IMG/VR virus record: IMGVR_UViG_2778261223_000007
Location: 12,132 to 76,131 of that record
DNA: 64,000 nucleotides
Reading direction: 5' to 3' (one strand)
Source of the DNA: a virus
Taxonomy: Duplodnaviria; Heunggongvirae; Uroviricota; Caudoviricetes
Shown: positions 21,744-58,275 of the stretch, piece by piece
Layout of the letters: the number at the start of each line of letters is the position of its first letter
How positions within the stretch are numbered: position 1 is the first letter of the stretch
The notes under the pieces: generated by a model
What the model saw: the letters and a program-made list of their open reading frames with translations, nothing else
What the model was told of the DNA's origin: nothing
Databases searched by the model: none
Translations under genes and position numbers: made by a program

Positions 21744-21954
21744 TGCTGTTTCTAAATCGGAATGTATGATCTGCATCATCGACTGAAGTCATCCATTGCT
21801 GAAATTTTTAGTTGATCTTCCATGTTTTCAGGCTTATATTCATGCCGTCGTAGCAAATTCTGCGACCAGGTTTGACAGCCTGAATGTTAGTGCGGACAAC
21901 CGCAGATTTCCGATATTGCGGTATTTTTGTGTCCGTAAACCGCGTTACGCCCGA

Positions 21955-22085
21955 ATTATGGTGGGGCGTGATGGGGAGGCTTCGGCCTGCTGGTTTCACT
22001 AACGCCAGTCTGTCAACCCTGTCACGTCCTGCCACCTGTTTGACAGCGGGTAGCAGGTTGTTAAACCTGTTAGTGAGGCCGTAAC
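21955..22085 (+). ncRNA. candidate c4-type antisense/immunity RNA region
   Basis: ORF-free, hairpin-rich leader (GAGGC-TTCG-GCCT; CTGTCAA..TTGACAG) directly upstream of the icd-like ORF, as in P1 immI. Boundaries not determined. Confidence 0.25.
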
Positions 22086-32710: not shown

Positions 32711-33919
32711 ATGAGTCAACACACTGATACTTCTAATCTGGAAATTATCTCGACAGCAATTGAAACGCTGCGCACACAAATCGCTCTTATACAGAAACGG
32801 AATCCTGGTGATGACCTGTCAAAGCGACTGCACGAGAGTGTCATTGCCACTACAGATAACCTGGTGGCGGAAATCAACAAGCTGCTTGATGATGGGGCAG
32901 TTGATTACAATAAGCTGGTGGATCAGTTTGAGGAATACCAACAAGCCGTTAATGATGGCTTGATCCGTTTTTCACAAGTCACAGGCGTATCAGCGACAGT
33001 TGAAAGCCTGGGTGATGCAGTTAATCAATTTGCCACGAATATGCGTAATGAGATCGGCAATCTGGAAGCGCGTCTTGAACAGGCAAATACACTGCGTAAA
33101 TCTGCTGAAGCCGATTTGAACCGTTACAAAAAAGACTATCCGCCCACCCTGACAAAGCGGCTGGATGTTGCGGAGAAGGATAACCGCACGCTGAAAAGAG
33201 AGCGCCGGGAACTAAAAGAGCGTTTAACCAAGCTCAATCAGCAATGCATTGATTATCAAGGCGAAGGCGTCACACTGCGTAAAAAGTTGGCTACAGCGCA
33301 GAGCATTATCGAAACATTAAAGCGAGAGTGCTCACAGCTTGGTCACGATCTGAACCGTGCTTGTGGCATGGGACAAAGACCAGAGACATTTCCACTTATG
33401 TATGACGGAAGGGATGCCATTGCCTACATCCATGAGTATCCGCACGGCCTGGTTGCGGAAACTGGGCAGCGTGGCGAAGCACTGCTGACGGCTAATTACC
33501 ATCAACAAATCAGAACCAATCGCCTGTTAACGATGGATGTGATCCCATCGGTATGGGGAACGCCGCTTTACTATCGCCTGCCGGGCTTCGAAAAGGACTG
33601 GAATACCGACATAGACGAATGTCTCGCAGATAAAATTATGGCGTACCTGGAGACGGATTTTCCGCGCTTATATCGCCGGATTATGGACTCAAAGGATGCG
33701 CCAATCGATGAATTAAAAATGCGTCCGGAGACGCTGGAGGCAATCAAGCAGACGGAGTTTGATACTGTATTCAGTGTGGCCTGCATTCCAAGCTGTTTCC
33801 ATGAAAGCATTCCGTTCATGCAAGGAGATCGTCGTCAGGAAATCATTGACGCTTGCCGGGTATGGGCGAACGAATGGGATAAGAAGAATGGGGGTGTAGA
33901 AGATCTTTACGGGAAGTAA
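32711..33919 (+). CDS. coiled-coil protein of unknown function, monocistronic and operator-flanked
   Basis: 402 aa from ATG 32711 (the ORF track uses GTG 32696). N-terminal ~230 aa are heptad-rich; the Cys-containing C-terminal domain has no motif I recognise. Confidence 0.6.
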   Translation: MSQHTDTSNLEIISTAIETLRTQIALIQKRNPGDDLSKRLHESVIATTDNLVAEINKLLDDGAVDYNKLVDQFEEYQQAVNDGLIRFSQVTGVSATVESLGDAVNQFATNMRNEIGNLEARLEQANTLRKSAEADLNRYKKDYPPTLTKRLDVAEKDNRTLKRERRELKERLTKLNQQCIDYQGEGVTLRKKLATAQSIIETLKRECSQLGHDLNRACGMGQRPETFPLMYDGRDAIAYIHEYPHGLVAETGQRGEALLTANYHQQIRTNRLLTMDVIPSVWGTPLYYRLPGFEKDWNTDIDECLADKIMAYLETDFPRLYRRIMDSKDAPIDELKMRPETLEAIKQTEFDTVFSVACIPSCFHESIPFMQGDRRQEIIDACRVWANEWDKKNGGVEDLYGK

Positions 33920-33920
33920 T

Positions 33921-33938
33921 GTGTTAGAAATCTAAAAT
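33921..33938 (-). promoter_or_regulatory. operator-like site GTGTTAGAAATCTAAAAT
   Basis: Exact core immediately after the stop of the 402-aa gene and upstream of the promoter at 33954. Confidence 0.6.
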
Positions 33939-33953
33939 CACAATTCGAATGTG

Positions 33954-33982
33954 TTGATTGTGAAGGTAACTTAACATAGAAT
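33954..33982 (+). promoter_or_regulatory. sigma70-type promoter TTGATT-17 nt-TAGAAT
   Basis: Near-consensus hexamers with ideal spacing; no ORF follows. Confidence 0.55.
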
Positions 33983-33988
33983 TTTCCT

Positions 33989-34693
33989 TGCTGGTGGGCG
34001 GTACCCACGTTTCGCTTGCTGGGCTTGATAGTCACTTATTGGTTATTGTTCGCCCACCAGCATTTAACAAATTAAAGCGTTAGAAAAGTATAGTAACGCA
34101 AGAGCACGCTTTGGCACTGTGCAGGCAAAAGTTCAGCAGGTTTAGTGCGGAAAGTGGTTTCAGAGAGAGCACTTTGCGGAGTAAACGACAATACATGTTG
34201 AGCCACGGAAGGTCTTTTTAAGGTGTTCATTGATGATGGTCCGGCAGAGAGTAACGGTACATGCTGCATCTAATCATCAATGCACATCTTCAACATTAAG
34301 GAGGCATAGGGATTTTTGTGGCGGTTACCTTTTGCCCTGAGTCTCCTTAATGTTGCAGTAATGCACCTATGCGGATGTGGCCTTGCATTGTGTCTTGAAA
34401 GAATGGGGTAAGGCCGGGGATATCCCCAGGGGGAGGCACTCCCGCTGCAACGAACAGCCACAGACGGCAGTCGAGTGATGGGAACGTGAAAAGACTTTAA
34501 ACCTCGTTATGGCTGGCGTGGCAAACGCGACAACCGAGACAGAGCGGTGACGGGCGGAGAGAGTGCCGCATCAAGAAAGAAGCCGACTTGTGATCCCTTT
34601 CAGCGGGCATTTGAAAGTGAATCCAACTCAGGCAGTCGGCTTCTTTCTTGTGTGAGATGTAGCGTATTTGCCCATCTTCGGGTGGGCTTTTTT
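33989..34693 (+). ncRNA. candidate ~0.7-kb structured non-coding transcript
   Basis: Promoter-to-terminator unit without a credible ORF. Perfect stems of 10, 10, 13 and 16 bp (see findings). Confidence 0.35.
34670..34693 (+). terminator. intrinsic terminator
   Basis: GCCCATC-TTCG-GGTGGGC followed by T6. Confidence 0.8.
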
Positions 34694-34867
34694 AGGGTTT
34701 TCGTCATGGTTAGCGACTTTGCGGCGGTTTAGAAACCGACCATTAAAGTAAATGCAAACGATGATCTGATGATGGTAGCGGCCTAAGAAGCCAGACGCCA
34801 CGGGGTATGAGTCGTCCCCCGTCAAAAAATCGACCGCAGAGTGTCCCCGTCTGTGTATTAGGGAACG

Positions 34868-34964
34868 GGGAGGCATAACAGGCAAGGGCGCTGGTGTGAT
34901 TAACCAGATGAATGAGAAGGGTCAGGTCTTTCTGGTCAGCGCCCTTACCTGTTACGTCCCTCCC
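34868..34964 (+). other. long hairpin A of the CAYAACAGG family
   Basis: AACAGGCAAGGGCGCTG (34877-93) pairs with CAGCGCCCTTACCTGTT (34937-53); extended by GGGAGG/CCTCCC. Confidence 0.6.
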
Positions 34965-35153
34965 GCGTAACAGCCATTGCTTAATGGCATCCTGGGGGAA
35001 TTTCTTGTAACGGGTATATCCCGTCATGCTGAAGGCGCTAATCACGCTGGAAGCCAGGGTTGTGCATCCCCTGTTACCGAATTGCAGCCAGGGCGCGGTG
35101 CGCCGAAAAGCATACGGAGGTGGAAGCCCTCGCCGGAGACGTACCCGGCAAGT

Positions 35154-35229
35154 GATGGTGTAGCTCAGCGGTTAGAGCGGTTGACTGTTAATCAACGGGT
35201 CGATGGTTCAAATCCATCCACCATCGCCA
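35154..35229 (+). tRNA. tRNA-Asn (GUU)
   Basis: Manual cloverleaf: acceptor GATGGTG/CACCATC, D stem GCTC/GAGC, anticodon loop CTGTTAA, T arm GATGG-TTCAAAT-CCATC, encoded CCA. Confidence 0.9.
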
Positions 35230-35231
35230 AT

Positions 35232-35307
35232 GCCGGTTTAGCTCAGTTGGTAGAGCGCCTGCCTTGTAAGCAGGATGTCAGCGGTTCGAGTCCGTTAATC
35301 GGCACCA
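35232..35307 (+). tRNA. tRNA-Thr (UGU)
   Basis: Acceptor GCCGGTT/AATCGGC, anticodon loop CTTGTAA, T loop TTCGAGT, encoded CCA. Starts 2 nt after tRNA-Asn. Confidence 0.9.
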
Positions 35308-35308
35308 G

Positions 35309-35395
35309 CACAACAGGTAAGGGTATTTTGCGACGTCGGAGATCGCCGAGCTTGGCAGAGGGTTCGAATCCCTACGAAGTACCCTTACCGTTGTG
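35309..35395 (+). ncRNA. tRNA-like element lacking an anticodon arm, closed by a 16-bp bulged stem (hairpin B)
   Basis: CACAAC-A-GGTAAGGGTA pairs with TACCCTTACC-GTTGTG. Interior has a D-arm-like GCGA-CGTCGGAGA-TCGC and a T-arm AGGG-TTCGAAT-CCCT. No CCA. Confidence 0.45.
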
Positions 35396-35535
35396 ATGAA
35401 GTGCAGCTCTTTGAAGCAACCAGAAGATAAGCATCTGGCTTCACAACATAAACCGCAGGAACGACCAATAAACGGTAGTCCGTACGGAGAACACCCCGTT
35501 GAGGAAGAGGCCTGGCCGGAACCGTAACCGGCACT

Positions 35536-35627
35536 ACAACGTTGAGAACACTGGCGTAACGGGGTCATATCCCAATCTACGAATAAATGTTGCGTTGCAG
35601 CGTGACAACCAGTGTTCTCAACGTTGT
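35536..35627 (+). other. 19-bp perfect hairpin D (ACAACGTTGAGAACACTGG / CCAGTGTTCTCAACGTTGT)
   Basis: Perfect inverted repeat 35536-54 / 35609-27 with a 54-nt loop. Confidence 0.7.
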
Positions 35628-35772
35628 GGTGGATTCGCAGGCTGATGCGATAGCTTTCTTGGATGTTAGGGAAATGCGGCCGCAAATCTTCCCTTTCGCG
35701 AGCGGTGATCGTCCGTAGTCCTAATTGGCTGCACCGTATGCCGGAGATTCAGTACCGGCCACCACAACGGCC

Positions 35773-35859
35773 GGAGAGTAGGGCGCATGGTGCTCAAGCG
35801 GTCTTGAAAACCGTCCCATTGCGCAAGCGATGATGGTTCGATTCCATTACTCTCCGCCA
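35773..35859 (+). tRNA. class II tRNA-Ser (UGA), slightly non-canonical
   Basis: Acceptor GGAGAGT/ACTCTCC, anticodon stem GCGGT/ACCGT with loop CTTGAAA, variable arm ATTGC-GCAA-GCGAT, T loop TTCGATT, encoded CCA. Position 8 is A rather than U. Confidence 0.7.
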
Positions 35860-36126
35860 GCGCAACGTTAAGAGTATTTGGCTAATTAAGCGAATGCCGG
35901 AAGCAGAACCGGATCACCAAATGCGTACAGGCGTCATCGCCGCCCAGCCAGCCAAGTGCTCTTACCATTGCGGTGAATGCGGCTAAGCGCACGCGGAACA
36001 GTTAAAACAATCCTCCTTAGTGGTTAAGTCAAAAATCCCGGCGTTAATTGTTAACTGGTTAACGTCACCTGGAGGCACCAGGCACCGCAACCTAATAAAT
36101 ACGTCATGTTTATTGAGGGATAACCA

Positions 36127-36561
36127 ATGTTCGGTAAATTTTTCGGTAAGAAAGTCGCTTCAGCAAAAGTAGAGCTGAAAAGGGTTGAGAATCGCGATCT
36201 GATGGAGGCCATTATCGGTGGCTGTTTGTTGGTGTCTGCCGCAGATGGTGAAATCGAAAAGGAAGAAACAGCGAAACTTGATCAGCTTGTCCGCTCTAAT
36301 CCTCGCTTAAGTCATTTTGGCAACGAAATTACCGCAACAATCACCCGTTTTACTGAGCAACTGGAAGCTGGTTTCCGTGTTGGTCGCATGAATATCCTTC
36401 GCGAAATTGAAGATATCAAAAATGATCCAAAAGAAGCGGAAGAAGTATTCGTTAACATGCTGACGATTGCAGAAGCGGACGGTGAAATCGAGCCAGCAGA
36501 ACACAAAGTACTGGAAGAAGTAGGCCGTCGTTTGGGCCTTCGTGTGGAAGATTATCTGTAA
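36127..36561 (+). CDS. tciA: TerB-domain protein TciA
   Basis: 144 aa with two SAADGEIEKEE / AEADGEIEPAE TerB-type repeats; embedded in the tRNA cluster as in P1. Confidence 0.75.
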   Translation: MFGKFFGKKVASAKVELKRVENRDLMEAIIGGCLLVSAADGEIEKEETAKLDQLVRSNPRLSHFGNEITATITRFTEQLEAGFRVGRMNILREIEDIKNDPKEAEEVFVNMLTIAEADGEIEPAEHKVLEEVGRRLGLRVEDYL

Positions 36562-36725
36562 TGATTGGCAAGGCGCGTATTGCGTGCGCCATTGGTTTTC
36601 TCGTTTTGTCCGTGCTGGTGGATTTCACCAGCAAAGTGATGTCGGTGTTGGCTGATGGGGCACTGGTTTCAGTAGCTGTGGTATTGCTATTGCCGATTAT
36701 TAAAGCTGCGTTCAGGAACTCATGA
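36561..36725 (+). CDS. tciB: small membrane protein (TciB position)
   Basis: 54-aa ORF below the ORF-track cutoff. ATG overlaps the tciA stop (TAATG). Two hydrophobic helices. Confidence 0.5.
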   Translation: MIGKARIACAIGFLVLSVLVDFTSKVMSVLADGALVSVAVVLLLPIIKAAFRNS

Positions 36726-36835
36726 TGGATTTTTGGACGTATATTGATAAGAACCCTGGATGGTCTTTGCTATTTCTGCTTGTGATCGTATACGGAGTAG
36801 AACAAGTAGCGAAGAATCTCAGGCGTCGAAAATAA
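36722..36835 (+). CDS. tciC: small membrane protein (TciC position)
   Basis: 37-aa ORF MMDFWTYIDKNPGWSLLFLLVIVYGV..; overlaps the tciB stop. Confidence 0.45.
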   Translation: MMDFWTYIDKNPGWSLLFLLVIVYGVEQVAKNLRRRK

Positions 36836-36844
36836 AAACTAATT

Positions 36845-36920
36845 GGCCCCTTAGCTCAGTGGTTAGAGCTGGCGACTCATAATCGCACGGTCACCGGTTC
36901 AAGTCCGGTAGGGGCCACCA
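36845..36920 (+). tRNA. tRNA-Ile2 (CAU, lysidine type)
   Basis: GGCCCCTTAGCTCAGTGGTTAGAGC..CTCATAA.. is nearly identical in its 5' half to E. coli ileX as I remember it. Encoded CCA. Confidence 0.85.
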
Positions 36921-37104
36921 TATTTGGTTGTAACACGGCGTCTGGCACATGCGTCGTTAGCGGTCTGGTGACGTTAAAGGGGTTACCTTTTCCCCTAGCT
37001 CAGGCAACAAACCAGGTAGCCGGAATGTGCAAGCCCCGTTCATATCGTCGGACCGAGGATTCACCATCCTGGCGATTCGGTGTGACAGCCGGAAGAGCAC
37101 GGCG

Positions 37105-37152
37105 CACAACAGGAAAAGGCGTTTAATTAGCGTGAGCGCCGTTTCCGTTGTG
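37105..37152 (+). other. hairpin C of the CACAACAGG family
   Basis: CACAAC-A-GGAAAAGGCG pairs with CGCCGTTTCC-GTTGTG; same bulged A as hairpin B. Confidence 0.55.
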
Positions 37153-37374
37153 GTAATTGCGGCTATGCGCTCGTGACGAAGCCATTTTCATTCACTACGT
37201 TCTGATAAGTGACGTCGCCAGGAGTGGCTAACCTGGCAGGTGGAGGCACCACCGCCACAACTCCTTTCAATTCATCATATAGCCGCTCAGGCTGTACCCC
37301 TTAATTAATACGAAGTTACGACATCACTACCGGCACTTCCGGGGGATAGTCGCGCGTGTAAAAAAGGAGACGTT

Positions 37375-37950
37375 ATGTTAATGGCGAACGATAACGCATA
37401 TGCAGAAGAAGATCTCATTTTGAGTGACTTCATAGGGAAGCGTGAACGCTGGACCCAAAAGCGAGAGGAACTTTACGCCTCATTAGTTCGCAAAGGCGTC
37501 AATATCGAAACCGCACAGAGCGGCGATATGACAGTGGTAAGCGTTGGATTGCACGGTGTAAGCGTGTCAGCAATCAATCATGAGCCATACGTTGCGTTAT
37601 CCGAGTCAATGGTAAGGTTAGTTAAGTTCCTGAAGTACACAGAAGCGAATAATGTAATCATTGGCAAAAAGAATATCCCTTTTTCCTCGGCTTTTTACTG
37701 GATGATGAAAGGGCTTGATGCCCGGCGGACATCATGGCCTAAAGGGAGCTATATATCGATGTTCCGTGGCAGCATTGGCAGCAAAGAAAAGCTCTTCGAA
37801 TTCTTGCCGGAAGAGGCATTCGATATTGTGGAAGGGTGCGATGTGATGGTGATGCCTCGCCTGGTAATGATGAATGGTGATTTACAGGCGCAGACAGACT
37901 GGTTTGCAACTGGTGTGGATATTATCGCGACTGACTGGGAGGCTTTCTGA
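37375..37950 (+). CDS. protein with a C-terminal DUF2829-like domain
   Basis: 191 aa. FSSAFYWMMKGLDARRTSWPKG...DIIATDWEAF. Confidence 0.55.
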   Translation: MLMANDNAYAEEDLILSDFIGKRERWTQKREELYASLVRKGVNIETAQSGDMTVVSVGLHGVSVSAINHEPYVALSESMVRLVKFLKYTEANNVIIGKKNIPFSSAFYWMMKGLDARRTSWPKGSYISMFRGSIGSKEKLFEFLPEEAFDIVEGCDVMVMPRLVMMNGDLQAQTDWFATGVDIIATDWEAF

Positions 37951-38342
37951 TGTACGGGACTACCAAATTAAGCACTCAACAGGCCACCAATATTGAGTGG
38001 TCTATCGCTAACTGTAAGATCGTGTCATGCAATGCCACGCGTACTGATGTGGGCCATAAAAGCACTATAACAGGCTATCTAGTAATGACCACCAGGGGGA
38101 TGAGGGTTAGATTTCGTTGGAAAGCAGAGCAAGTAACGCCATTCAGAGAGCCATCAATGCCGCTGCAGGTTGAGCAGGATTATCTATGTTTACCAGAAAT
38201 AGATGGCGGAATGCTGGTGGAGTCTGATGGTAGTAAGGCTGATTTTGAAGCCAATTTGAAGCTGGCACAGGCCGTAATCAATAGTTATCGCGGACAGTGG
38301 ATCGCAAAAGTGAAACATGTTGTTCGTTTGTCTCGCTGGTAG
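37950..38342 (+). CDS. hypothetical protein
   Basis: 130 aa; ATGA overlap with the upstream gene. Confidence 0.45.
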   Translation: MYGTTKLSTQQATNIEWSIANCKIVSCNATRTDVGHKSTITGYLVMTTRGMRVRFRWKAEQVTPFREPSMPLQVEQDYLCLPEIDGGMLVESDGSKADFEANLKLAQAVINSYRGQWIAKVKHVVRLSRW

Positions 38343-38374
38343 TATTAGATATTTGGTATTAATTTTCTAATACA
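38342..38374. promoter_or_regulatory. bipartite inverted operator-like pair, TCTAATA variant (GTATTAGATA..TTTCTAATAC)
   Basis: Two half sites in inverted orientation, 77 nt upstream of the lpa-like start. P1 lpa is also C1-controlled. Confidence 0.45.
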
Positions 38375-38450
38375 ATCATCTTTTTGCCAGTCTATACAGT
38401 TTTAACATTCTCATTATCATCCCCTCGGTCATTTCCTGCCCGGGGGATTA

Positions 38451-38843
38451 ATGGAACAAATCAGCAGCGCAGAAATTGCGGATATCATGATCAGGGCTGA
38501 CTGCTATCTGACAGTCACTGAAATTACCACTCTCGCCAAAGAAAAATACCCTCATCTCCATGTTTCACGAGTAAGTGTAACTAACATCATTCGTCATTTT
38601 GTTCGTTCAAGCAGGGCAATCTGTGAGCTTGATGATCGTGTGTATCCACGAAAATACTGGTTGCATGGCCTGAACGGATATCAGTTCAAGGTGCGTGGGC
38701 GAACCCCGGAATACGGCAGTTTACTGGTTAAAAACTGTAGCAGGAAATCAGTCGAACAGGCGCGAAAAGAGCAACGAGAGCTGGTGGACATGGCGAATAA
38801 GCTGTGGAATGCCGCCGTTAAAAAGCGTGGTGTTGCTTTATGA
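38451..38843 (+). CDS. lpa: late promoter activator Lpa-like
   Basis: 130 aa immediately upstream of and overlapping pacA, preceded by the operator pair. Positional call. Confidence 0.5.
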   Translation: MEQISSAEIADIMIRADCYLTVTEITTLAKEKYPHLHVSRVSVTNIIRHFVRSSRAICELDDRVYPRKYWLHGLNGYQFKVRGRTPEYGSLLVKNCSRKSVEQARKEQRELVDMANKLWNAAVKKRGVAL

Positions 38844-40204
38844 GTCTGGTTAATTGGGAGGAGCACCGCGCCCGCTTTATGGCGTTGCGTGAAGAAAAAG
38901 GGATCACTGTAAAGGAATACTGTGAGGAGCATGGCCTTAGCTTCAATACAGCCAGAAAGCATCTCAATATGAAAAAAAATGAGGTGCGGTCGCAGGTAAA
39001 GACAACAAAAAAAAGCACCAAATCACCTGAAAAAAAACGGGCGGGAAGAGCAACAAAAAAGCTGGAAGAGGGTGCAGAAAAAACAAAATTTACAGAAATT
39101 GACAATTCGCAGGGCGCAGGTTCTTTCCGAAGTATGCCGAGAAAGAAAACTTCGGATCATGAAAATAATTCAAATAATAACAATGAGATAAAAGAATCCG
39201 TCAGGAGATCATTGCGCGAAAAAATGGCGAAAATGATCCCCGAAGAAGATAAAAGCGCCCCAAAAATTGAGGGATCTTCTGCAATGATCCCTGACGGTGC
39301 TGTGCAGCGTGCCACATTGCCAACTACGAATGTGGCTCGCGATATGATGAAGAACGGCGCAGAAGAACACCTGCGGTTAGCAATTCAAATGGCGCAAGAG
39401 CGCGCACTTCAGTATCAAAGCATTGTTGATCAGGAGGCCGAACGTCTACAGGCGGAAATAGACGCCTTGGGCGATAAAGAGCCAGAAGGAATGCACCCTG
39501 GGCAGCGCCTTCTCGGTCTAATCAGTGACGCGGCCTACTACATGAATGATTTTATCAGTAGGTTGGCAGCTATATATCAGTCCGAACAAAAGCTGCGACA
39601 GGGGGATGAAAAGCTTCGTCAGAGCGCTCGCCAGCAAGCATTCAAAGAGGCTGAGGCCAGAGAAAAACTCGAATTAGCACGCCTACAGGCCGAACAGCGT
39701 GGCAAAGAGATTGAATATCGCATTGGCGCTGACGCACGCGCAGCCAGAGTTATCGCCGCCGCTATACGTATGCGTGAGCGCGAGGAACTGGATGATATCG
39801 GTGTTGCTGAATACATCGAGCGCCAGGGTGTCAGCGTCCCGGCTATCCTCGCGGCGCGCGCGGCGAAAGCTATCACTCTTCTCGAACCACCTGTTTCTGA
39901 CGTCAATGATGTTGATGATGAACAGCTGGACAAAGAGGCAAGGGAGTTTGCAACGCTTCAGGCTAACCATCCGCAATGGCTGGCAGAGCGCCGGGCGGAT
40001 GTGGCAACCATTGTTGAAGAATTGGGGTGCGGAGATTACGACCGCAATGGCGAGCGTAAAGCAGGAGAATTCGAGGCCAACGACGAAGAGCTGGATATTG
40101 ACCCTTCGGCAACGGCTGAAATTTACGGTGATTATGATGCATCTGATGCAGGGTATGACGCCGGAGATGATGATATCGCGATAGAACCGCCGGAGGATGA
40201 TTAA
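38840..40204 (+). CDS. pacA: terminase small / pac-recognition subunit PacA
   Basis: 454 aa. N-terminal HTH (ITVKEYCEEHGLSFNTARKHL), acidic C-terminus; contains a GATC cluster; overlaps pacB. Confidence 0.75.
   Translation: MSLVNWEEHRARFMALREEKGITVKEYCEEHGLSFNTARKHLNMKKNEVRSQVKTTKKSTKSPEKKRAGRATKKLEEGAEKTKFTEIDNSQGAGSFRSMPRKKTSDHENNSNNNNEIKESVRRSLREKMAKMIPEEDKSAPKIEGSSAMIPDGAVQRATLPTTNVARDMMKNGAEEHLRLAIQMAQERALQYQSIVDQEAERLQAEIDALGDKEPEGMHPGQRLLGLISDAAYYMNDFISRLAAIYQSEQKLRQGDEKLRQSARQQAFKEAEAREKLELARLQAEQRGKEIEYRIGADARAARVIAAAIRMREREELDDIGVAEYIERQGVSVPAILAARAAKAITLLEPPVSDVNDVDDEQLDKEAREFATLQANHPQWLAERRADVATIVEELGCGDYDRNGERKAGEFEANDEELDIDPSATAEIYGDYDASDAGYDAGDDDIAIEPPEDD
39155..39289. other. 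candidate pac packaging site (cluster of 5 GATC)
   Basis: GATC at 39155, 39207, 39235, 39273 and 39286, two as GATCA and two as TGATCC. P1 pac is a Dam-methylated hexamer cluster inside pacA. Confidence 0.45.
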
Positions 40205-57968: not shown

Positions 57969-58073
57969 AATACTGACTGTTGCGCCCTGGCATTATCGTG
58001 GGGTATATTTCTACGGCACCTTAGAAAAACGGGTGCCGGGATTGGAACCCCGGATAATGTCAAAGGCGACACA

Positions 58074-58094
58074 GACGCCGAAAGCGTCTTTTTT
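58074..58094 (+). terminator. intrinsic terminator
   Basis: GACGC-CGAAA-GCGTC followed by T6. Confidence 0.65.
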
Positions 58095-58109
58095 GTGTCA
58101 TGCCATCGC

Positions 58110-58275
58110 ACAGCCATACGTAGCGTTTAGCTCAGAGATCAATGGTAGTGCTGGCTGGGCTGCCGAAAGGCAGGCCGGTTCCCTTTGACGCCGGTAGTTC
58201 CAACCCAGTCAGTGCTACCGCCATTGAGATTGGAACCTCACGCGGTAGCTCCTTAACTTAGTCAAAGGAGGCTGC
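58110..58275 (+). ncRNA. candidate c4-type RNA region with tRNA-like 5' sequence
   Basis: GCGTTTAGCTCAGAG (tRNA D-arm-like), a CTGCC-GAAA-GGCAG hairpin, and CTCCTT..AAGGAG pairing that sequesters the icd SD. Boundaries unknown. Confidence 0.25.

Follow-up and report, generated by a model that had tools for sequence, protein, structure and literature searches.

Background

The tRNA cluster of phage T4 also yields stable non-tRNA RNAs, named species 1 and 2, which are matured from the same precursors, and the large structured RNAs GOLLD and ROOL lie near tRNA genes in phages and prophages. Other small RNAs are cut out of operon transcripts: DicF, encoded in the dicB operon of the Qin prophage, is processed by RNase III and RNase E and targets ftsZ, the T7 mRNAs provide another precedent for cutting at hairpins by RNase III or RNase E, and the C4 antisense RNA of phages P1 and P7 is reportedly cut from a longer transcript by RNase P. 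Here, we describe the spacer that follows a tRNA gene with anticodon CAT in phage D6, a P1-like plasmid prophage of E. coli (positions 36921-37374 of a window of 64,000 nucleotides, whose numbering is used throughout). This spacer most likely forms the final part of a long array that combines tRNAs with structured small RNAs, in an early operon of the P1 family (the ban operon in P1). It appears to encode, in this order, a 176-nt RNA that we call AB RNA, a 19-bp linker hairpin and a 115-nt tRNA-shaped RNA of the STnc100/PasD class. As judged from comparative sequence analysis, these modules exist, are conserved far beyond D6, have pairings kept by compensatory changes and lie on the strand of the neighbouring genes and tRNAs.

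The known members of the last class, STnc100 (RF02076) and PasD of Salmonella and pathogenic E. coli, share a common fold (bioRxiv 10.64898/2026.05.13.724894), and PasD is a northern-validated, Hfq-dependent RNA whose Hfq binding and pairing with target mRNAs are known from RIL-seq and northern blots (PMC8550237). Like the D6 units, they are borne by phages or prophages and consist of a terminal helix, a GAAU segment, a small hairpin, a variable middle part and a 3' hairpin (CCGGG-AGGCA-CCCGG) abutting the terminal helix. Unlike STnc100, the D6 units lack a terminator of their own and form part of a tRNA/RNA array or of an mRNA leader; the sequences of their closing helix and hairpin differ, through compensatory changes, and a role of Hfq would be assigned to them by analogy.

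The other systems resemble this locus in part. C4 offers a precedent from within this phage family, in that a tRNA-processing enzyme matures this small structured RNA out of an operon transcript, but C4 has no sequence or model similarity to the spacer (the Rfam C4 model matches 21954-22039 and 58138-58225, not the spacer) and it has known targets, unlike the spacer RNAs so far. The two C4 antisense RNA loci of the window lie within 21834-22039 and 58016-58225; a c4-a1b1 target motif is present in one, an isrK-like RNA (62.7 bits) precedes the other, and all these matches are above the Rfam gathering scores. T4 belongs to a different phage family from D6, whose array lies in an operon that also carries protein genes. 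GOLLD and ROOL are, like AB RNA, ornate RNAs supported by covariation that travel with phage tRNA genes, but they are several hundred nucleotides long, occur in other bacterial phyla and are in Rfam, which gives no match here. Finally, a "dicF-like region" is marked in the P1 record where this same (ban) operon begins; DicF itself has no similarity to the spacer modules and differs from them as a short base-pairing RNA with a known target.

Structure of the AB RNA

Homologues of the 5' part of the spacer were gathered by scanning viral contigs with an invariant 19-mer, GGTAGCCGGAATGTGCAAG, which gave more than 119 loci, and 28 non-redundant sequences were aligned (alignment A1). Across the proposed pairs 98.0% of the cells are paired, compared with 26-45% when the partners are slid; both bases change in 10 of the pairs, and none of 500 shuffles scores as high. 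Sequences of common descent can beat shuffles without any structure; for AB RNA, the slid-partner control speaks against such an effect. Covariation was used as evidence because the z-scores of single-sequence folds are weak. In helix P1 it consists of G-C / A-U (15/12), in helix P2 of C-G / U-A (19/9), in helix P4 of C-G / G-C / U-A with a second pair A-U / U-G / C-G / U-A, and in helix P5 of C-G / G-C with a second pair U-A / C-G; the candidate pseudoknot 2 shows C-G / A-U (25/3), and the G-U pairs are compatible with the + strand only. The alignment thus describes a conserved RNA whose five helices are kept by compensatory changes, and which probably has two pseudoknots. Between the variable hairpins lie conserved blocks (the GGCAC loop, AGCGGUC, GGUAGCCGGAAUGUGCAAG, the UCACC loop, GGCG..GGUGUGA and the GAAGAGA loop), and this large number of invariant loop and junction bases suggests a bound partner. 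A division into two separate modules "A" and "B", based on differing BLAST ranges, was abandoned: the profile shows one continuous RNA whose 3' half diverges faster. Rfam 15 gives no relevant match in 36900-37400 at E up to 10, and none for AB RNA at gathering thresholds over the whole window.

The first-pass annotation had read part of this region as the remnant of a tRNA 5' half. The 20-mer in question, TTTCCCCTAGCTCAGGCAAC, does sit at 36989-37008, as that annotation had placed it, but its likeness to the neighbouring tRNA is at chance level. The best local alignment between tRNA(CAT) and the spacer is 11/12 nt (CCCTTAGCTCAG vs CCCCTAGCTCAG), and 54/500 spacer shuffles score equally high; ARAGORN finds no tRNA in the spacer and the Rfam tRNA model has no match in 36900-37400 at E up to 10. 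Nor are these bases conserved: at this position homologues have TTGCTCGGGCAA or TTGCTCGAGCAA or lack the segment, and most show UUGC-UCGG-GCAA or its absence. Comparison with these homologues indicates that the tRNA-like spelling is specific to the D6/P1 lineage.

Reading the spacer as free of annotated open reading frames (ORFs), with the limits given above, is borne out: the ORF listing contains only unannotated ORFs of at most 52 aa. The spacer was also considered as coding and rejected, since it holds short ORFs only and since the variable hairpins of the AB RNA homologues carry indels whose lengths are not divisible by three.

Distribution of the AB RNA

Each phage has one profile match to AB RNA. 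In P1, P7, SJ46 and RCS47, it directly follows trnI, with 88-96% identity, and corresponds to the first 186 nt of the trnI-ban spacer of P1. In lambdoid prophages, it lies in a long non-coding stretch just downstream of the repressor gene; in epsilon15-like phages and prophages, it precedes tRNA-Arg(UCU) by 67-130 nt; and it is also present in Klebsiella Lastavirus. Among complete E. coli genomes, 2139/5426 (about 40%) have a match, which is annotated in none of them. The exact 19-mer occurs in 24 species-representative genomes, all Enterobacterales except two metagenome bins. Within 1.5 kb of AB RNA (132 contexts), every tRNA detected is on the AB RNA strand (57/57).

In Klebsiella phage SJM3 (locus L005, ~1960-2130), a divergent variant recognised by eye keeps GCATGGCAGATGTGACGTTAGCGGCCTGAG and ends in CACAAC; since it escapes the sequence profile, the family is probably wider than the exact 19-mer indicates. 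AB RNA may also equal a small RNA seen under another name (e.g. PasB) or an unnamed entry among the ~10,000 viral structured RNA candidates (PMC10690425). The ~80-nt segment that follows tRNA-Arg in epsilon15-like phages may bear on PasB, which has been described as embedded in a phage structural operon. In phiV10 (L004 2742-3022; also L007 and L012), this segment has the appearance of a free-standing small RNA and ends in a terminator hairpin of 14 bp (2862-2897); a second terminator immediately precedes the accessory ORF. E. coli 2012C-4502 has a type I-E CRISPR spacer (CGTCGTTAGCGGTCTGGTGACGTTAAAGGGGT; L158 401-432) that matches the AB RNA gene at 36952-36983 over 32/32 positions, with a functional ATG protospacer-adjacent motif just upstream at 36949-36951; the AB RNA segment has therefore been a source of acquired immunity of E. 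coli against D6-like elements.

These positions raise the question of whether AB RNA is a cis-acting, protein-independent processive antiterminator, functionally like the put RNA of phage HK022, which would carry the early transcript past hairpins and terminators. In lambdoid prophages, AB RNA is found where PL leaders lie, downstream of the repressor gene and its own terminator, a position that by gene order is similar to that of put (early in a leftward operon and followed by terminators); put acts, and AB RNA would act, with no dedicated protein gene nearby. In epsilon15-like phages, AB RNA heads a cassette with two intrinsic terminators between tRNA-Arg and the downstream ORF, a crude scan placed a terminator between AB RNA and the first ORF in 36/107 contexts, AB RNA is always in operon orientation, and its many invariant loop and junction bases suggest macromolecule binding. 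However, the HK022 putL region contains none of the AB RNA conserved blocks and shows no sequence resemblance to it, and the architectures differ (176 nt and five helices vs ~70 nt and two stems for put; PMC9378689). One AB RNA is present per phage whereas HK022 has putL and putR, and the D6/P1 copy is not promoter-proximal but 2.6-3 kb from the operon promoter, after most structured elements and directly before the last genes. Moreover, a strict scan found no promoter-like site upstream of AB RNA in phiV10 or mEp460. We consider a put-like function fairly unlikely. A broader proposal can be held only tentatively: AB RNA could be the first representative of a so far undescribed class of phage RNAs with two pseudoknots across Enterobacterales prophages, acting either in cis on RNA polymerase, as an antiterminator that needs no protein and has no relation to put, or as a ligand- or protein-sensing switch of early operons.

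The box and the STnc100/PasD-class units

A box of about 30 nt upstream of tciA and of the ATG at 37375 had been noticed as an imperfect direct repeat, and the repeat is confirmed above chance. The boxes lie exactly at 36062-36091 and 37231-37261; the end of the first is separated by 35 nt from the ATG at 36127, and that of the second by 113 nt from the ATG at 37375. A third copy is found at 34427-34451 (80% identical to 37237-37261), and the first two lie inside longer paralogous units whose 5' ends carry a 39-nt repeat (35955-35993 vs 37135-37173, 74% identical). Over 37146-37261, D6 is 79% identical to Klebsiella Lastavirus phages. The box consists of the 3' hairpin and the 3' closing-helix strand of a structured RNA of ~100-125 nt, as the Rfam STnc100 alignment shows for the first copy; the second copy also takes in the tail of the penultimate hairpin. 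Folded alone, each of the three D6 units gives a terminal helix (7-8 bp) that is followed by AAU ((G/U)AAU in the class), then a small hairpin, a variable middle part and a 5-bp hairpin with an invariant AGGCA loop, and their closing helices and 3' hairpin stems differ from one another by compensatory changes (Table 1).

To place these units, a covariance model (R1) was built from 8 units of other phage contigs, without D6 and with two canonical STnc100 copies included, and was run over 33000-39000 with filters off. It returns exactly three significant matches, which are the three D6 units; the next best match is tRNA-Asn (E 0.05). A sequence-only profile without D6-like members recovers copies 1 and 2. 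In a family of 20 distinct units, 99% of the cells are paired, vs 30-52% with slid partners, and 9/16 pairs change on both sides, counts that are lessened in weight by the alignment having been fitted to the model. By their core fold and by the D6-free model, the three D6 units are members of the STnc100/PasD class. A MAFFT alignment of all the units (A2) was discarded as it mis-registered the 3' hairpin between subtypes, and was replaced by a model-based alignment.

In 25/25 distinct units, the best-pairing closing helix begins right after the 3' hairpin, with zero spacer, and the resulting 12-bp minihelix resembles the acceptor and T arms of tRNA. Because of this abutting stack, the units are tRNA-shaped, and this shape, not the 20-mer discussed above, is the real tRNA echo of the region. 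Phage P1 also carries such a unit (98 bits) at P1 70080-70199 (L002 3148-3267), 34 nt upstream of tciA, where its record annotates only predicted upl promoters on the opposite strand.

The box had been proposed to be a shared processing or translation-initiation signal and not junk. The spacer is indeed not junk and the box belongs to an RNA signal that recurs in the RNA block, but the box is neither free-standing nor a general translation signal, because homologous units precede different things. The unit is followed by a tciA-type ORF at +34 to +38 in P1, D6 and relatives, by a 78-aa ORF at +34 in some P1-like contigs, by tRNA-Arg at +3 in SJM3, by another long hairpin in SopranoGao, by a GC-rich palindrome that by eye resembles a terminator in canonical STnc100, and by orf6 at +113 in the case of D6 copy 2. 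The constant distance of 34-38 nt to an ORF across P1-like elements concerns the tciA-upstream copy only, which leaves a possible leader role for that copy alone; a processing role for the box or its unit is plausible from these arrangements.

That the box or its unit acts in cis as a 5'-leader signal for the translation or mRNA processing of both tciA and orf6 is, in our opinion, unlikely. Besides the constant spacing, this explanation can draw on the invariant GGAGG of the 3' hairpin, which looks like a Shine-Dalgarno sequence, on TerB-family genes as conserved neighbours, reported for PasA/PasC and not for PasD or STnc100 (bioRxiv 10.64898/2026.05.13.724894), and on the over-induction of tciA, together with ban, in RNA-seq of P1 infection of an hfq-deletion host (bioRxiv 10.64898/2025.12.28.696737). 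Against it stand the tRNA, the hairpin and the palindrome that take the place of an ORF in SJM3, SopranoGao and canonical STnc100, the 113 nt of unrelated leader that separate copy 2 from orf6, the own Shine-Dalgarno sequence near the ATG of each ORF and the lack of a credible gene after copy 0.

Table 1. Positions in the window of the spacer, its RNA modules and related features
Feature	Positions	Strand	Remarks
tRNA, anticodon CAT	36845-36920	+	ARAGORN (as Met); Rfam tRNA model 66.2 bits; 5' boundary of the spacer
Spacer	36921-37374	+	between tRNA(CAT) and the ATG at 37375
AB RNA, one structured RNA of ~176 nt	36933-37110	+	profile match 36934-37108; alignment of 28 homologues
Helix P1	36936-36943 with 36949-36956	+	loop GGCAC
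Helix P2	36960-36967 with 37013-37020	+	closes the variable hairpin containing the supposed tRNA half
Supposed tRNA half	36989-37008	+	apical part of the variable P2 hairpin of AB RNA
P3-closing helix	37033-37035 with 37071-37073	+	
Helix P4	37056-37059 with 37067-37070	+	loop UUCACCA
Helix P5	37088-37091 with 37100-37103	+	loop GAAGAGCA in D6, GAAGAGA/U in most homologues
Candidate pseudoknot 1	36945-36948 with 37027-37030	+	
Candidate pseudoknot 2	37062-37065 with 37079-37082	+	
Linker hairpin X4, CACAAC...GTTGTG	37105-37152	+	19 bp, two internal bulges; fold -25.8 kcal/mol, z -2.3
STnc100/PasD-class unit, copy 0 (most divergent)	34352-34451	+	R1 match 34354-34449, 23.3 bits, E 4e-5; fold z -2.5; closing helix GUUGCAG/CUGCAAC; 3' hairpin GGGGG-AGGCA-CUCCC (34429-34443)
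STnc100/PasD-class unit, copy 1	35968-36091	+	R1 match 35969-36089, 106.7 bits, E 2e-26; Rfam STnc100 39.6 bits, E 1.8e-7; holds the first box; closing helix UUGCGGUG/CACCGCAA; 3' hairpin CCUGG-AGGCA-CCAGG (36068-36082); 35 nt 5' of the tciA ATG
STnc100/PasD-class unit, copy 2	37147-37261	+	R1 match 37149-37259, 30.8 bits, E 5e-7; D6-like-free profile E 1.5e-7; closing helix GUUGUGGU (37147-37154) / GCCACAAC (37254-37261); AAU linker, small hairpin with loop GCUAUGCGCU, variable middle; 3' hairpin GGUGG-AGGCA-CCACC (37239-37253); fold -42.4 kcal/mol, z -2.0
Leader of orf6, 113 nt	37262-37374	+	Shine-Dalgarno AAGGAG 37364-37369; ATG 37375
orf6 of D6	37375-37950	+	first gene 3' of the spacer; hypothetical in the record; Tad2-like domain

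The linker hairpin and the upstream RNA block

AB RNA is joined to copy 2 by the linker hairpin, whose 3' arm is also the 5' strand of the copy 2 closing helix, so that the two structures are mutually exclusive; the minimum-energy fold of the whole spacer forms the linker in place of the closing helix. A terminator-like call at 37118-37140 corresponds to the apex of this hairpin, without a real T-run, and was rejected. Three similarly built hairpins, with arms of 13-23 nt, are found between other units further upstream (35308-35398, 35532-35631 and 35860-35975), and the RNA blocks contain on their + strand 5 copies of CACAAC vs 0.9 expected and 4 of GTTGTG vs 0.64 expected (5-6 fold, p ~0.002-0.003). 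Upstream of homologous units in SJM3 and SopranoGao, such hairpins, read by eye, keep the outer stem and change the inner one; in other phages they abut tRNA-Arg, with GUGG common to the hairpin and the acceptor stem. The linker, an imperfect duplex some two helical turns long that separates units of the predicted polycistronic RNA, has the form of an RNase III processing hairpin and is a candidate site of cleavage by this enzyme.

The tciA, tciB and tciC genes lie 5' of the spacer and are preceded by an ORF-free block of 2.2 kb (33920-36126), in which the arrangement as an RNA array is unannotated. It contains tRNA-Asn, tRNA-Thr and tRNA-Ser, two STnc100-class units, long CACAAC...GTTGTG hairpins and a related type of unit (~35625-35770) with the ending GCCGGAGAUUCAGUACCGGC-CACCACAAC, which is the same in mEp460 and SopranoGao. 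The hairpin at 35308-35398 encloses a T-arm-like GGGTTCGAATCCC (35360-35372). For tRNA-Ser(UGA) (35773-35859), the best Rfam model is tRNA-Sec (43.1 bits, below the threshold of 47), and in the D6 record tRNAscan-SE gave no amino acid. The only promoter-like site at the head of the block (33954-33982) is ~700 nt 5' of a strong intrinsic-terminator-like hairpin, GCCCATCTTCGGGTGGGC followed by TTTTTT (34670-34695). As this hairpin precedes the tRNAs, these and the downstream genes need read-through or another promoter.

Sequences of this kind beside tRNAs could be decayed tRNA genes or recombination scars devoid of function. The spacer adjoins tRNAs, the block holds tRNA-like pieces (the T-arm-like segment above, and a tRNA as the fourth match of R1), and the modules show a mosaic distribution among phages. 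Decay is nevertheless extremely unlikely: the supposed tRNA half is a non-conserved chance match, the modules are 75-96% identical in unrelated phage groups and reach two fifths of the E. coli genomes (2139/5426), and their helices are maintained by compensatory changes, which are unexpected under decay.

Genetic organisation around the spacer

The + strand of the window is the minus strand of the D6 record MF356679, to which 36800-37450 is 99.8% identical and the spacer alone 100% identical. That record has zero features annotated in the spacer, and it omits a tciC-like 37-aa ORF (36722-36835) and tRNA(CAT) (36845-36920), both of which are annotated in P1. The P1 record names the orthologue of this tRNA trnI, tRNA-Ile2, whereas ARAGORN labels the D6 copy as Met; ARAGORN reports four tRNAs in total and 0 inside the spacer. 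In P1, the Pban promoter, with the C1 operator that is said to control ban, is ~2.6 kb upstream of ban, and trnA, trnT, tciABC and trnI lie between the two on the same strand.

Downstream, the orf6 leader is kept in D6-like elements only. Residues 103-190 of the orf6 product match the Pfam family PF11195, Tad2-like (Thoeris anti-defence 2-like; E 1.1e-9, 39.1 bits vs a cut-off of 25). This neighbour suggests that the modules might be anti-defence RNAs, i.e. tRNA-like decoys or sponges against host immunity that targets tRNAs or senses RNA, carried in an accessory cassette with anti-defence proteins. In epsilon15-like phages, the slot after AB RNA and tRNA-Arg likewise holds variable accessory genes, including DUF2829/Tad2-like ones, the STnc100-class units are tRNA-shaped and the arrays sit with phage tRNAs. 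The support is however purely contextual, the downstream genes of lambdoid phages and P1 are ordinary early genes (yfdP-like and the replicative helicase Ban, respectively), and no known decoy RNA resembles these folds to our knowledge, which makes a decoy function very unlikely.

Transcription and processing of the array

We favour, as rather likely, the explanation that the spacer is part of a co-transcribed array of tRNAs and small RNAs that is cut into stable RNAs. The whole stretch would be transcribed together with tciABC, the tRNA and orf6: a scan found no promoter-like or terminator-like site in the spacer, orf6 leader included, and Pban of P1 lies upstream on the same strand, from which we infer co-transcription. 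Host RNases would then release stable RNAs from the transcript, RNase P by cleaving at the tRNA and perhaps also at the tRNA-like units, and RNase III or RNase E by cleaving at the long linker hairpins (CACAAC...GTTGTG). The STnc100-class units would act as Hfq-associated small RNAs, by homology to their relatives, and AB RNA would be a structured RNA binding a protein or a ligand. The effect of the hfq deletion in P1 is circumstantial here; the two over-induced genes, tciA and ban, are those just downstream of the STnc100-class unit and of AB RNA, respectively.

Several points weigh against this explanation or parts of it. For D6 and P1 alike, co-transcription and every cleavage step are drawn from sequence and arrangement, and a single transcript from the first promoter would need to read through the terminator at 34670-34695. 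The single-sequence folds of the D6 modules are unremarkable (z -1.0 to -2.5). In AB RNA, both pseudoknots rest on little or no variation, pseudoknot 1 being invariant and pseudoknot 2 having one covarying pair in 3 related sequences, and seeding with the exact 19-mer makes the conservation of that block, including one strand of pseudoknot 1, true by construction. Regarding the STnc100 class, copy 1 is below the Rfam gathering score (39.6 vs 47 bits) and is matched at model positions 31-147 of 206 only; positions 148-206 are unmatched in D6, and no terminator-like site follows any D6 unit. The Rfam STnc100 model gives no match for copy 2 (E up to 10) or copy 0 (E up to 1), and copy 0, being missed by a sequence-only profile that excludes it, is a weak member.

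Significance

Although P1 and its relatives belong to the most thoroughly studied phages, the spacers between their tRNAs and the next genes have been regarded as empty, and this one contains a strongly conserved folded RNA. AB RNA, which has no annotation name and no Rfam model, is carried by about two fifths of the sequenced E. coli strains in three unrelated prophage types. The STnc100/PasD family, now discussed as a marker of Stx-type prophages, is also found in the tRNA/RNA arrays of P1-like, lambdoid and Klebsiella phages. These observations raise the questions of how phage tRNA arrays are matured, what roles the co-travelling RNAs have and whether RNA elements, instead of proteins, may control read-through in those lambdoid early operons whose early-left leader shows no N-type gene.

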